Source: a bacterium
GTDB lineage: Bacteria; Patescibacteriota; Minisyncoccia; Phycocordibacterales; UBA9973
DNA: 35,982 nucleotides
Assembly (NCBI GenBank): GCA_021813175.1
Contig: JAKALJ010000002.1
Coordinates: forward strand, 1-35,982
Reading direction: 5' to 3'
Of the stretch, positions 4,062-27,671 are shown one piece after another. The position numbers and the translations under genes were made by a program. The notes under the pieces were generated by a model. That model ran no database searches and was not told the DNA's origin. It saw nothing but the letters and a program-made list of their open reading frames with translations. How positions within the stretch are numbered: position 1 is the stretch's first letter; every line of letters starts with the position of its first letter.

Positions 4062-4476
4062 GGGGATGCCAGGCATAGACAAAAGGCCTGCTCGCCCGAA
4101 TGCATGCCGAGTATGAGCGCAAACTCGCTAAACTTCGCTCAAAACGTTAATTGCAAAATTAACCGCTAAGGCCAAAGCTCTGGTCTCTCCGTACTTCGGT
4201 GCGAAGGACTTCGCTTTCGCTCCGGCTTTCGTTTAAGAAGGCCGGTGTCTCCCCTCTCTACTTCCGATAAAGAGGGAAAGGCATAACATTATCGGAATAG
4301 GAAGAGATTTTTTCCTGGTCTCTCTCCAAATCCGCCAGCTGGCGGATAAGGAATCGGCTTTCGGATATTTGGCTCGCTTCTGAATCCGGGAGCTTAAAAC
4401 CGCAAAGCGCGCTACGCATGTAGACTTTCCGGCGGCACTCTTTTGCACGGGGATTCAATTTCCCCCATCTCCACCA
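4062..4476 (+). ncRNA. ssrA: tmRNA (SsrA), about 415 nt
   Basis: The 5' GGGGAUG pairs with 3' CAUCUCC, including a G3-U70 wobble, followed by A-CCA (4473-4476). The T-arm is GGGGA-UUCAAUU-UCCCC, and the gene follows smpB. The likely tag frame starts at GCA 4153 (preceded by UUAAUU) and ends at TAA 4234-4236, giving AKLTAKAKALVSPYFGAKDFAFAPAFV. A shorter resume at GCG 4201 (AKDFAFAPAFV) cannot be excluded. Confidence 0.85.
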
Positions 4477-6745: not shown

Positions 6746-7269
6746 AACTGATTCTAGACTTTGATGATGTGCTGTTCAAGAACACCCCTGAATTCAAGGA
6801 CTGGATGTTTTCGGTAATCGCCGAAGCGGGAGTGATGAGGAAGAAAGCGGAAGCGGAATACAAGAAAGTTCGGATGGACCAGTTCTCTCTGCGCAATTTT
6901 CTGACCGGTTTAATTGGAAACGATGATATTTATAAAAAAATAATATCTATATGCTCAAAGTTGGTAAATGAAGAAATGATAGCGTCAGCGCGCCAAACCG
7001 GCCGGGAAAACTGTTACTTGGTCACCAACGGTGATAGGGAGTTCCAGGAGGATAAGATTAGGAGAAGTGGTATTGTCCCACTTTTTAAGGAAATCCATAT
7101 CTTGCCGGGAAGCAAGAAGGAAGTTATAGAAAAGATATGCCAGAAAAATCCGGGAGAGGAGATAATTTTTTACGATGACAAGGAAAAATTCTTCGCCGAT
7201 CTGGACAGGCGTAAATATCCGAATTTAAAGACTGTTTTGTACAAAAGAGGCGAACCTTTGGAACTCTAG
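6742..7269 (+). CDS. HAD-superfamily hydrolase-like protein
   Basis: 175 aa with motif I DFDDVL at the N terminus, LVTNGD, and a late YDDK acidic motif. It overlaps the upstream gene by 4 nt. Confidence 0.55.
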   Translation: MKLILDFDDVLFKNTPEFKDWMFSVIAEAGVMRKKAEAEYKKVRMDQFSLRNFLTGLIGNDDIYKKIISICSKLVNEEMIASARQTGRENCYLVTNGDREFQEDKIRRSGIVPLFKEIHILPGSKKEVIEKICQKNPGEEIIFYDDKEKFFADLDRRKYPNLKTVLYKRGEPLEL

Positions 7270-8094: not shown

Positions 8095-9459
8095 TTAACA
8101 ATCCAAAGTGACGCTGTCTCCTTGTTCCGGGGCGTAGGCTTCGATGCCGAGGTTGTCTCTGACTTTTTGCACCAGAAACATGGATGATTTCGGCTCTCCC
8201 ATTACCATAAACACTTTCTTTAAGGATTCCCGCATTTCTTGGATGAAGCCGAGCAGATGGTCCGAATCTTTGTGGCCGGAATATCCATAAATGTGCGCCA
8301 GATGCGCCCGGACTTGGACATATTCGCCCGCGATTTTCACTGTTTTCACCCCTTCTTCGATGAGTCGGCCGGGAGTACCCACTGATTGGTAGCCGATCAA
8401 AAGCAGGGTATTGTTCGGGTCCGGGAGATATTTCTGCTCATGATACACCACCCGTCCACCGCTCGACATCCCGCTGCCGGCAATGATTATCTTTGGGCTC
8501 TGAGCATCATCGATGGCCCTTGATTCTTCGGCGTTCAAGGTAAAACGCAGACCCGGAAATTTAAACAAACTCTTGTCCTCAATCATTATTTTTTGGGCTT
8601 CTTCATTGAAGTAACTTTTGTATTTCTGAAAAATTTCGGTGAGTCGAATGGCTAAAGGAGAATCCAAAAATACCGGCATCTCCGGTATATGGTCTTCTTC
8701 CACTAAATTATTTATCTCAAAAAGGATTTCCTGGGAGCGTTCCAAGGAAAAGGTGGGTATAATCAGCACACCTTTGCGGTGAAAGTTGTCTTCTATCACT
8801 TCTTCCAAGAGTAGTCGGCGATCTTCTCGCGATTCATGATTCCGGTCTCCGTACACGCTTTCCATCACGAGGTAATCCACCTTTTCCACCCTATCCGAAT
8901 CCGGCAGAAGGGGTGAAGGACTGTTGCCCAAGTCGCCGGTGAAAAGTATTTTTTTGTCGTTGTAAAAGAACTGCACCATAGCCGAGCCGAGAATGTGTCC
9001 CGCGTTCAAAAATACCGCTTGAAGCTTTTCCGATATCGAAATTTTCTGGCGATAATCGGCTGTCTGCCACAGGGAAAAAGCTCGGCTGATATTCTCTTTG
9101 GAATATATTTTATCGAGGTTATATTTGTCGCTTTTGCTTAAAATACCGGCGGTATCCTCAAGCATTGGTTTGGCCAAGTCTTTAGTGGGGGGAGTAGAGA
9201 TTATTTTTCCCTTAAATCCGTCTTCAACCAGTTTCGGCACTCGACCCAGATGGTCCACGTGGGCATGGGTAATGAAAAGAAAGTCAATTTCTTTCGGATC
9301 ATATGGGAAAGGCGCCCAGTTTGTTTCGTCCGCCAATTTTTCCGACTGAGTAAGACCGCAATCCACCAGAATTTTCTTCCCGTCCGCTTCTAAGAGAAAA
9401 TTAGCCCCAGTGACAGTGTTAACTCCTCCGCAAAAAGTCAATTTCACCTTATCTGCCAT
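8095..9459 (-). CDS. MBL-fold beta-CASP family ribonuclease (CPSF/RNase J-like)
   Basis: 454 aa with metallo-beta-lactamase motif FITHAHVDHLGRVP, a beta-CASP middle region, and a C-terminal HSGH-like segment (GYSGHKD). Confidence 0.8.
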   Translation of the reverse strand: MADKVKLTFCGGVNTVTGANFLLEADGKKILVDCGLTQSEKLADETNWAPFPYDPKEIDFLFITHAHVDHLGRVPKLVEDGFKGKIISTPPTKDLAKPMLEDTAGILSKSDKYNLDKIYSKENISRAFSLWQTADYRQKISISEKLQAVFLNAGHILGSAMVQFFYNDKKILFTGDLGNSPSPLLPDSDRVEKVDYLVMESVYGDRNHESREDRRLLLEEVIEDNFHRKGVLIIPTFSLERSQEILFEINNLVEEDHIPEMPVFLDSPLAIRLTEIFQKYKSYFNEEAQKIMIEDKSLFKFPGLRFTLNAEESRAIDDAQSPKIIIAGSGMSSGGRVVYHEQKYLPDPNNTLLLIGYQSVGTPGRLIEEGVKTVKIAGEYVQVRAHLAHIYGYSGHKDSDHLLGFIQEMRESLKKVFMVMGEPKSSMFLVQKVRDNLGIEAYAPEQGDSVTLDC

Positions 9460-9509
9460 TATGTTTACATTATATATTATTTTTCTTTTTCTGGAAACAA
9501 AAAAATCAT

Positions 9510-9528
9510 GGAGCAGTCGGGAATATTC
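9510..9528. repeat. Partial, inverted copy of the Z repeat
   Basis: ggagcagtcgggaatattc is the reverse complement of gaatattcccgac(c)tgctcc found at 13489-13506. Confidence 0.6.
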
Positions 9529-9544
9529 TGTTGAGCTTATTTAA

Positions 9545-9704
9545 AAAGAAAAAATCCTCGCCGGCGAGGATTTTTTCTTAGGGTTATTCGCAATGTATTA
9601 CCGTAGCCAAAAAGCTAGGTGGGTGCCAGACGCTTCACGCCACGGCGCAAAACGATCAAAGCTCCCTAAAAAATACGTACTAGGTAATAATTGGAAATAA
9701 CCCT
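9545..9704 (-). ncRNA. Candidate small RNA (promoter - closed helix - intrinsic terminator), family unknown
   Basis: On the minus strand, TTGTCA-N16-TATACT is followed 6 nt later by AGGGUUAUU. That opens a roughly 20-bp terminal helix: 9704-9696 pairs with 9580-9588, 9693-9690 with 9591-9594, and 9689-9683 with 9596-9602. The helix encloses 80 nt. It is followed by UAAG and the terminator AAAAAAUCCUCGCCGGCGAGGAUUUUUUCUUUUU (9577-9545). Confidence 0.5.
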
Positions 9705-9710
9705 GCTTTC

Positions 9711-9738
9711 AGTATAGACGAACTTTTGAATCTGACAA
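9711..9738 (-). promoter_or_regulatory. Putative promoter of the candidate sRNA
   Basis: Minus strand TTGTCA (9738-9733) - 16 nt - TATACT (9716-9711). The predicted start near 9704 coincides with the first base of the terminal helix. Confidence 0.5.
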
Positions 9739-9802
9739 CTGGACGAGTCCAATTTTTTGTTTCTGAATATAACTTTCTCGGAAAACCCTTGAGAGATAAG
9801 CT

Positions 9803-10387
9803 CTACTCATCCACTCCAAACCGCTTGTAATCATGCAAGGTTGTGTTTCCAAACCAATGCTTTATCTCGTGCTCTGCCTCTTCCGGAGTTTCCGAGCAAT
9901 GTACGATATTCATCACCGCTCTCTTCTCCTTGTTGGCCAGGGCCGGCGAATCTATGGAGAAATCTCCGCGAATGGTACCCATATCTGCCTTGTACGGCAT
10001 GGTATCTCCGGCAATTTTTCGTACTACATCCACCGCGTGCACCCCCTCTACCACCATTTTCACCAGTGGGGCCGAGGTCATGTAATTCACCAGCCATTTA
10101 CGGATCTCCGGGCCGATTTTCTCCGCCTCGGTAGTGCCAAAGTCCGCCAGAGCGTCATAGCCATATTTCTCGTAGGTGTTCAAAGTCTTCTGACCCAAGC
10201 GGGTAATCCAAGCCGGGTCCTTCGGATAATGATTGTCAATCTGCTCGTGAGTGGGCTTGAACATTTCTAGAGCGACGATCTTCAGGTCCCGGCGCTCAAA
10301 GCGGGTGATAATCTCGCCGACCAACCCTTTCATCACGCCATCGGGCTTTACCATCACATATGTCTTTTCTTCTTTCGGGTGTTTCAT
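9803..10387 (-). CDS. ndk: Nucleoside diphosphate kinase (long form with internal insertion)
   Basis: 194 aa, with KTYVMVKPDGVMKGLVGEIITRFERRDLKIVALEM and the active-site region NIVHCSETPEEAEHEIKHWF. There are about 40 extra residues between the HY motif and LVNYMTSAPLVKMVVEG. Confidence 0.85.
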   Translation of the reverse strand: MKHPKEEKTYVMVKPDGVMKGLVGEIITRFERRDLKIVALEMFKPTHEQIDNHYPKDPAWITRLGQKTLNTYEKYGYDALADFGTTEAEKIGPEIRKWLVNYMTSAPLVKMVVEGVHAVDVVRKIAGDTMPYKADMGTIRGDFSIDSPALANKEKRAVMNIVHCSETPEEAEHEIKHWFGNTTLHDYKRFGVDE

Positions 10388-27209: not shown

Positions 27210-27671
27210 CTATAACATCTTTACATCTATGTCCACCCCGGAAGGCAGAGACATATTGGTCAAGGCCTCCACCGTATTCGCGTTTGGATTCACGATATCT
27301 ATCAGACGCTTGTGCACCCTGATTTCAAACTGCTCGCGTGAATTCTTGTAAATGAAAGAGGAGCGGTTTACCGTGTACTTCTTTATTTCAGTGGGCAGAG
27401 GCACCGGGCCCACAATCTCCGCGTCATAGCGCATAGCGGTATCAATGATTTGCTTTACCGAGGCGTCTAAGATTTTGCTCTCATAGGCGCGAACCCGGAT
27501 ACGCAATATCACTTTGCTCTCTTCTTTTTTCGTCCCTTTAACGGTTTTTTTCACGAAAGAGTCTTTTACTTTCTCCGTCCTTGTTTTAACGGAAACCGAG
27601 GGCGATGCGCTACGGGCTGATTTGCCTGCCGCTTTGACAGGACTTTTCTCTTTTGTACCTGATGTGGCCAT
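27210..27671 (-). CDS. rpsJ: 30S ribosomal protein S10 (with a possible 50-aa Lys/Ser-rich N-terminal extension)
   Basis: The core is ILRIRVRAYESKILDASVKQIIDTA...GPVPLPTEIKKYTVNRSSFIYKNSREQFEIRVHKRLIDI. The ATG at 27671 lies 6 nt after the tuf stop. An internal GTG (KV|ILRIRV, near 27512) would give a canonical-length S10. Confidence 0.9.
   Translation of the reverse strand: MATSGTKEKSPVKAAGKSARSASPSVSVKTRTEKVKDSFVKKTVKGTKKEESKVILRIRVRAYESKILDASVKQIIDTAMRYDAEIVGPVPLPTEIKKYTVNRSSFIYKNSREQFEIRVHKRLIDIVNPNANTVEALTNMSLPSGVDIDVKML

Follow-up and report, generated by a model that had tools for sequence, protein, structure and literature searches.

The minus strand of positions 9543-9738 of the window (the whole 35,982-nucleotide stretch analysed here, from contig JAKALJ010000002.1 of assembly GCA_021813175.1) very probably carries ssrS of Candidatus Nomurabacteria (Paceibacteria, Patescibacteria), which would encode a compact and divergent 6S RNA. 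Comparative sequence analysis confirms a genuine small-RNA gene here, equipped with a promoter and a terminator of its own; the element is conserved and covaries in more than 100 loci, which excludes a chance origin. A 6S RNA had been raised as a possibility in the original prediction, and it is now supported by reciprocal covariance-model evidence.

Two covariance models and one main alignment are referred to throughout. R1 was derived from 29 sequences of the genus; since it was too narrow to reach the 6S RNAs of other classes, a broader model, R2, was built, which contains sequences of the window RNA family only. Alignment A4 joins the genus sequences with 14 more divergent members found in metagenomes by a pattern scan. 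For the named genomes of other families, matches were available as coordinates and scores, and the sequences are those of metagenomic members. The features of the locus are as follows.

8095-9459, minus strand: beta-CASP RNase gene, downstream of the RNA and on the same strand.
9469-9497, minus strand: promoter-like site TTTCCA-17-TATAAT for the beta-CASP gene, found in the promoter scan and located after the terminator.
9543-9579, minus strand: intrinsic terminator, consisting of an A-tract, the GC palindrome UCCUCGCCGGCGAGGA and UUUUUUCUUUUU; a 15-bp hairpin in the fold.
9575-9706, minus strand: 132-nt core of the 6S-like RNA, delimited with models R1 and R2; row L001 in alignments A1 and A4.
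9580-9602, minus strand: 3' strand of closing stem P1, from the fold, the consensus and the pair counts.
9603-9620, minus strand: 3' strand of the central bubble, ACCUAGCUUUUUGGCUAC, with the mini-hairpin UAGCU/GGCUA at 9604-9617, from the minimum free energy (MFE) fold and covariation.
9621-9666, minus strand: terminal arm P2 (the upstream or '-35' arm), in which 13 of 17 pairs show compensatory changes.
9667-9682, minus strand: 5' strand of the central bubble, UAGUACGUAUUUUUUA, A/U-rich, unpaired in both the MFE fold and the consensus and aligned to the Rfam 6S bubble via L166.
9683-9704, minus strand: 5' strand of closing stem P1, from the fold; helices 1 and 2 are 93-98% paired, and 11 pairs show double changes.
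9704-9706, minus strand: predicted transcription start (G9706 to A9704), placed by its spacing from the -10 hexamer.
9711-9716, minus strand: -10 hexamer TATACT, from the promoter scan; TAnnnT ends 3-5 nt 5' of the core in 112 of 113 homologous loci.
9733-9738, minus strand: -35 hexamer TTGTCA, from the promoter scan, with a 16-nt spacer; TTGnnn, mostly TTGC, occurs at this place in 112 of 113 homologous loci.
9803-10387, minus strand: ndk, the upstream flank, on the same strand as the RNA.

Signals and distribution of the gene

A minus-strand promoter TTGTCA-16-TATACT, with the A that opens the helix 6 nt further on, had been proposed from inspection of the sequence, and both elements were recovered by the promoter scan and by sequence geometry. 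The two hexamers, separated by 16 nt, form a promoter of the sigma-70 type and show 10 matches out of 12 to the consensus, and TATACT is followed on the minus strand by GAAAGC and then by A9704, the first paired base. Judging from this spacing, the RNA likely starts at A9704 or G9706, at the foot of the helix. The same arrangement is found in the relatives, where the spacer between -35 and -10 measures 16-18 nt in 112 of 113 loci and varies freely in sequence, TATACT is the commonest form of the -10 hexamer, and the gap between the -10 hexamer and the core is 4 nt in 106 loci.

In about half of the promoters a GTC(C/T)AG motif is fused to the -35 TTGC, directly upstream of it, and in the window the corresponding positions 9739-9750 read CGTCCAGTTGTCA. 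The promoters that lack this motif have a GAAAAA-rich stretch in its place. From its position, GTC(C/T)AG could be an operator or an UP-like element.

At the other end of the gene the core is followed on the minus strand by AAGAAAAAA, the palindrome UCCUCGCCGGCGAGGA and then UUUUUUCUUUUU. The last two elements occupy 9543-9570, and in the ViennaRNA fold flanking A/U pairs lengthen the hairpin to 15 bp, in agreement with the strong GC-stem terminator that had been described after the helix. Relatives keep the hairpin and a T6CTT tract, with stem letters that differ from locus to locus. A strict script accepted a terminator after the core in 87 of 112 loci, and 24 of the remaining 25 show a hairpin and a T-run by eye. 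The sole exception is L180:4708-4780, where the place of the short terminator is taken by a long hairpin rich in G/C (CCCCCCTCTCCTTAAAGGAGAGGGGGG) that lacks an obvious U tract. A consensus terminator scan called no terminator at the window RNA, though the hairpin is plain in the fold and kept in relatives, presumably because the stem runs into the U tract. No open reading frame of at least 40 codons was found inside the window RNA. Since 112 of 113 loci have a promoter that ends 3-5 nt ahead of the core, and nearly all have a terminator, the locus has the make-up of the dedicated RNA gene of about 160 nt that had been suggested.

Of 36 sampled genomes of the genus, 35 gave a BLASTN match to the element, with identities of 69-81%. 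In 79 of a further 80 loci, filed under names such as Candidatus Nomurabacteria and Paceibacterota, R1 found the RNA ahead of the beta-CASP gene; the loci retrieved with the beta-CASP alignment all had 68-84% protein identity and apparently belong to the same genus. The window core, G000:C5:9575-9706(-), scores 131 bits with R1 and 130.3 bits with R2. At the level of the order (more than 110 families), 89 of 151 sampled genomes have a single full-length R1 match each, and R2 gave matches in 122 of 151, or in 109 of the 134 genomes of high quality.

[quoted passage not shown] By its distribution the window RNA is a single-copy RNA of housekeeping type and not a dispersed repeat. Both tandem pairs lie in other families, with the two copies on the same strand (G071:C5:26912-27042 with 27214-27348, and G184:C10:6909-7043 with 7119-7231), and these duplications recall the 6S-1/6S-2 paralogues.

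Read on the plus strand (9575-9709 in the window), the locus also scores 27-52 bits with R1 and 33.7 bits with R2, a consequence of the nearly palindromic, rod-like form of the RNA. The minus strand is fixed by the G-U pairs and by the promoter and terminator, which are present on one side only. For weak matches to this RNA family, assignment of the strand needs a promoter, a terminator or G-U pairs.

Fold and covariation

In the ViennaRNA fold of the 162-nt RNA the closing helix consists of 10 bp, a 1x1 loop, 4 bp, a 1-nt bulge and 7 bp, and it encloses 80 nt (core positions 25-104). The helix had been read earlier as 9 bp, a 2x2 loop, 4 bp, a 1-nt bulge and 7 bp; its overall form and the 80-nt interior stand, and only the 2x2 loop gives way to an additional pair and a 1x1 loop, a trivial difference. 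The MFE is -67.5 kcal/mol, compared with -38.7 +/- 3.6 kcal/mol in 200 dinucleotide shuffles (z = -8.0), none of which (0/200) folded as well as the window RNA.

Within the closing helix, which amounts to about 22 bp, the folds contain the central bubble that could not be confirmed by eye in the original prediction, with a 5' strand of 16 nt and a 3' strand of 18 nt that carries the mini-hairpin. Beyond the bubble, arm P2 is built from a GGGAG...CACCC base, an A.A mismatch, a UC/U internal loop and a variable stem, and it is capped by CCGUGG in the window and by CCUUGG in most relatives.

RNAalifold predicted 39 pairs on the genus alignment, 12 of them with compensatory changes. On A4, the structure counted was of the MFE type, comprising P1, P2 and the mini-hairpin P3 in the 3' bubble. 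Here 90.4% of the cells pair, against 33-47% when the partners are slid by 1-3 columns, and the covariation score is 0.377, against 0.06-0.12 in the slid controls; the observed values were reached by none of 500 shuffles. Both sides of the pair change in 25 of the 44 pairs, so that the helix proposed from the single sequence proves to be conserved and covarying in relatives, which had been named as a test of the prediction.

Some segments of the RNA do not vary at all. GGGA and ACCCAC of P2 are invariant in A4, as are GGGAG and CACCCACCU, which flank the bubble as in the Rfam 6S consensus and are also present in the window row; since the divergent members of A4 were picked by a 3'-bubble pattern, conservation of the 3'-bubble motif in this alignment is partly built in and agreement at that motif is not independent. 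The order-wide model matches are independent of this pattern.

For the genus alone, RNAalifold chose an extension of P1 in which 5' CUAG pairs with 3' CUA. This form was rejected as the conserved one: the 5' CUAG is missing from divergent members, and covariation supports the mini-hairpin, as seen for the pair in columns 132/142 of A4 (CG in 18 sequences, AU in 8, UG in 2 and UA in 1), so that the mini-hairpin is taken as the conserved form. If the P1 extension forms at all, it does so as an alternative fold limited to the genus and its nearest relatives.

Probable 6S identity and alternative readings

Standard annotation does not recognize this RNA. A scan of the window at Rfam gathering thresholds returned only tmRNA and one tRNA, and in a permissive scan of 9440-9830 all matches, Phe_leader and MicC among them, were due to the terminator. 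The Rfam 6S model, RF00013, gave no match on the window copy even at E <= 10 and none in the genome from which the window comes. Over the 151 genomes of the order it gave eight weak matches of 13-27 bits, five of which (in G092, G038, G088, G089 and G056, representing five other families) share contig, strand and coordinates with R1 matches, an overlap with a chance of about 2e-4 per 0.6-Mb genome. Among the metagenomic members, L166 matches RF00013 with 30.9 bits over the whole model (E = 8.9e-5 in a local search) and L176 with 20.1 bits. Every member of the order that was tested thus lies at 13-31 bits, below the RF00013 gathering score of 46.4 bits, a threshold that is an operational annotation rule and not a biological feature.

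The motifs that define the bubble can be followed directly in the alignment of L166 to the model. There, UUUUUAAGGGAG before the arm, the CUUG loop, and CACCCACCUAG..CUAGGGUAAU after the arm fall on GGG, CUUG and CCCACCU...GGU of Rfam, and the 3' strand of the bubble matches CCCACCUgg..cc.GGU of the 6S consensus. The comparison also holds in the opposite direction. When applied across the phylum, R2 found matches in 25 other genomes, 10 of which coincide with RF00013 matches, and three of these ten are above the gathering score (G326 with 73.2 bits, G308 with 48.2 bits and G295 with 46.8 bits). From the reciprocal overlap of the models and the matching motifs we infer that the window RNA is a homologue of 6S RNA whose divergence and reduced size have taken it below the Rfam threshold. 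The polymerase partner expected for such an RNA is encoded in the same genome, with RpoD at G000:C6:13924-14643 (339 bits).

In its architecture the window RNA resembles 6S/SsrS (RF00013; E. coli 6S and B. subtilis 6S-1, also called BsrA) in its rod shape, where a large central bubble separates the closing stem from the terminal arm, in the GGG...CCCACCU letters around the bubble, in the apical CUUG loop, in the hairpin on the 3' side of the bubble, and in occurring as one copy per genome with a housekeeping-type distribution and reciprocal covariance-model matches. It differs in length; the L166 alignment lacks model positions ~19-31 and ~159-168 (outer part of the closing stem) and ~82-113 (middle of the terminal arm). 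It also differs from E. coli 6S in its expected biogenesis: E. coli 6S is excised from the longer ssrS-ygfA transcript, whereas the window RNA is predicted to be transcribed from the foot of the stem to its own terminator. The 6S RNAs of other Patescibacteria classes that Rfam can detect (e.g. G326:C17:3838-3995) belong to the same phylum, measure 142-197 nt and are matched by R2; they differ in that they pass or approach the Rfam threshold and, in the three genomes checked, lie off the contig that carries the beta-CASP gene.

Besides the failure to reach the Rfam threshold and the selection of divergent members by the 3'-bubble pattern, three observations were counted against the 6S identity. 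The core of 132 nt is short, with both arms truncated relative to the 187 positions of the Rfam model; the RNA ends in a terminator hairpin, which is not usual for a mature 6S RNA; and the synteny with the beta-CASP RNase could point to an RNase-related role. As for the first of these, B. subtilis 6S-1 has been cut down to the bubble with two short arms, and such truncated RNAs go through the whole 6S cycle in vitro: they bound sigma-A polymerase, templated product RNA and were released, with an affinity about 10-fold lower (PMC8876501). A natural form of 132 nt is therefore plausible; the truncated 6S-1 molecules are laboratory constructs, whereas in the window RNA family the short form is natural and conserved across the order. 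In the literature library searched, no paper on 6S RNA in CPR bacteria was found.

The third observation concerns the neighbouring genes. In every locus of the genus, and in all five other families checked, the RNA is followed on its own strand by the beta-CASP gene, at a distance of 55 to ~600 nt, with or without a 132-aa open reading frame in between. The product of the beta-CASP gene is an RNase of the CPSF73 type and not RNase J; the best match in the PDB is TTHA0252 of Thermus thermophilus (E = 7e-78). In most loci of the genus the 132-aa frame, which encodes a hydrophobic (membrane) protein, overlaps the start of the beta-CASP gene (e.g. L098:2119-2517). It is absent from the window, where 9460-9545 is just 85 nt with the promoter-like site. 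The upstream neighbour varies, being ndk in the window and in many other loci, a 575-aa Cys-rich protein at L098:111-1838 and extra DNA elsewhere, and the downstream beta-CASP gene is the only constant linkage of the RNA.

One reading of this linkage makes the RNA a cis-acting leader, either riboswitch or attenuator, that would control the downstream genes for the small membrane protein and the beta-CASP RNase through the terminator. The succession of promoter, structured RNA, terminator and gene is the typical layout of an attenuator, and the constant position of the beta-CASP gene within the genus and in the five other families is in line with it. Yet inspection of the alignments revealed no conserved antiterminator, the terminator stems differing freely while the 3' strand of P1 is nearly invariant. 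The gap to the gene is highly variable in length and in the presence of the intervening frame, and a separate promoter-like site 3' of the terminator in the window argues that the RNA is not simply a leader of the beta-CASP gene. Furthermore, in three genomes of other classes (G210, G243 and G326) the Rfam 6S match and the beta-CASP gene are on different contigs; R2 lands on the Rfam 6S match in G243 and G326, and not in G210, so that the RNA at this match is confirmed in two of the three. The leader reading does not account, either, for motifs that match the 6S consensus, and we regard it as highly unlikely.

We consider equally improbable that the RNA, while of 6S descent, now serves as partner or dedicated substrate of the CPSF73/TTHA0252-type RNase and not of the polymerase. 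The synteny conserved in the genus and the five families and the nature of the neighbouring enzyme speak for such a role, as does the precedent of RNase J1, another beta-CASP enzyme, which matures and degrades the 6S RNAs of B. subtilis (PMC10578484). Against it, gene order is weak evidence in small genomes that have a common gene order, and two genomes with weak Rfam 6S matches that no model match confirms (G122 and G154) have no beta-CASP protein match. The strong constraint on the bubble motifs that define 6S also suggests that polymerase binding has been retained.

A milder version is compatible with a 6S RNA. Judged by gene order alone, a functional link of the RNA with the beta-CASP RNase is possible: the RNase might mature the 6S RNA, for instance by removal of the terminator, or might destroy it or its duplex with the product RNA, and the RNA itself might be the smallest natural scaffold that holds the polymerase. 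We find this combined proposal rather unlikely; if true, it would amount to a dedicated module for 6S turnover in bacteria with genomes of ~0.5 Mb.

The other housekeeping RNAs were set aside in the original prediction, and the genome bears this out. The tmRNA sits at 4062-4476 of the window, and the RNase P RNA gene is on another contig, at G000:C6:1110-1493. Its score of 77.4 bits is below the RF00010 gathering score of 100, making it another housekeeping RNA of this genome that standard thresholds would miss.

The reading as a highly divergent SRP (4.5S) RNA is effectively refuted. The place for one might seem vacant, given that RF00169 has no match in this genome or in 40 others of the genus, but the proteins of the SRP are absent as well. 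In the genome of the window no SRP54 GTPase domain, Ffh M domain or TIGR00959 match was found, and the Ffh M domain was detected in one of 61 relatives (a genome with 5% contamination) and in none of 151 genomes of the phylum. The absence of two SRP subunits in many CPR bacteria has been reported in the Vampirococcus paper (PMC8080830). The candidate was dropped since Ffh and FtsY were not found, and neither RF00169 nor RF01854 identified an SRP RNA in this genome, the sole RF01854 match (16 bits) lying inside an open reading frame. In addition, the window RNA has no domain IV motif, and P2 is a continuous helix with a CUUG cap and not GNAR.

That the locus is a copy of a mobile fold-back hairpin repeat, MITE- or REP-like, and not an RNA gene has next to no probability: its nearly palindromic form and the R1 scores of its reverse strand would suit such an element, but it occupies a single locus per genome at a fixed syntenic site, has promoter and terminator on one strand only, and contains many G-U pairs that are valid on the minus strand only.

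Proposed mode of action and biological meaning

For the 6S reading, which we prefer, a mode of action can be outlined by homology. The rod with its open bubble would mimic an open promoter and fill the DNA channel of the RpoD holoenzyme, and housekeeping transcription would be damped when nutrients are scarce. In this mimicry, the closing stem would stand for downstream DNA, the bubble for the open -10 region and the 46-nt arm for upstream DNA toward -35. [quoted passage not shown] Alignment to the U44 region of E. coli 6S places the predicted start of this product near CCUAGUAC, so that its sequence would be approximately 5'-(G)UACUAGGUAAUAA. The product RNA would free the GGU of the 3' strand, which could then pair with ACC of CCCACC and extend the mini-hairpin, and the longer mini-hairpin may lead to collapse of the bubble and release of the polymerase.

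6S RNA is a near-universal global regulator of bacterial transcription, and its Rfam model remains below threshold in all tested genomes of this order. A model of the R2 type would annotate ssrS in about 80% of the genomes of the order. The natural 132-nt form, in which both arms are short, is an evolutionary counterpart of the truncated 6S-1 constructs, and it may mark out the minimal RNA sufficient for open-promoter mimicry. If the proposed action is correct, obligately host-dependent cells with genomes of 0.5 Mb would keep a growth-phase brake on their polymerase despite the loss of SRP.
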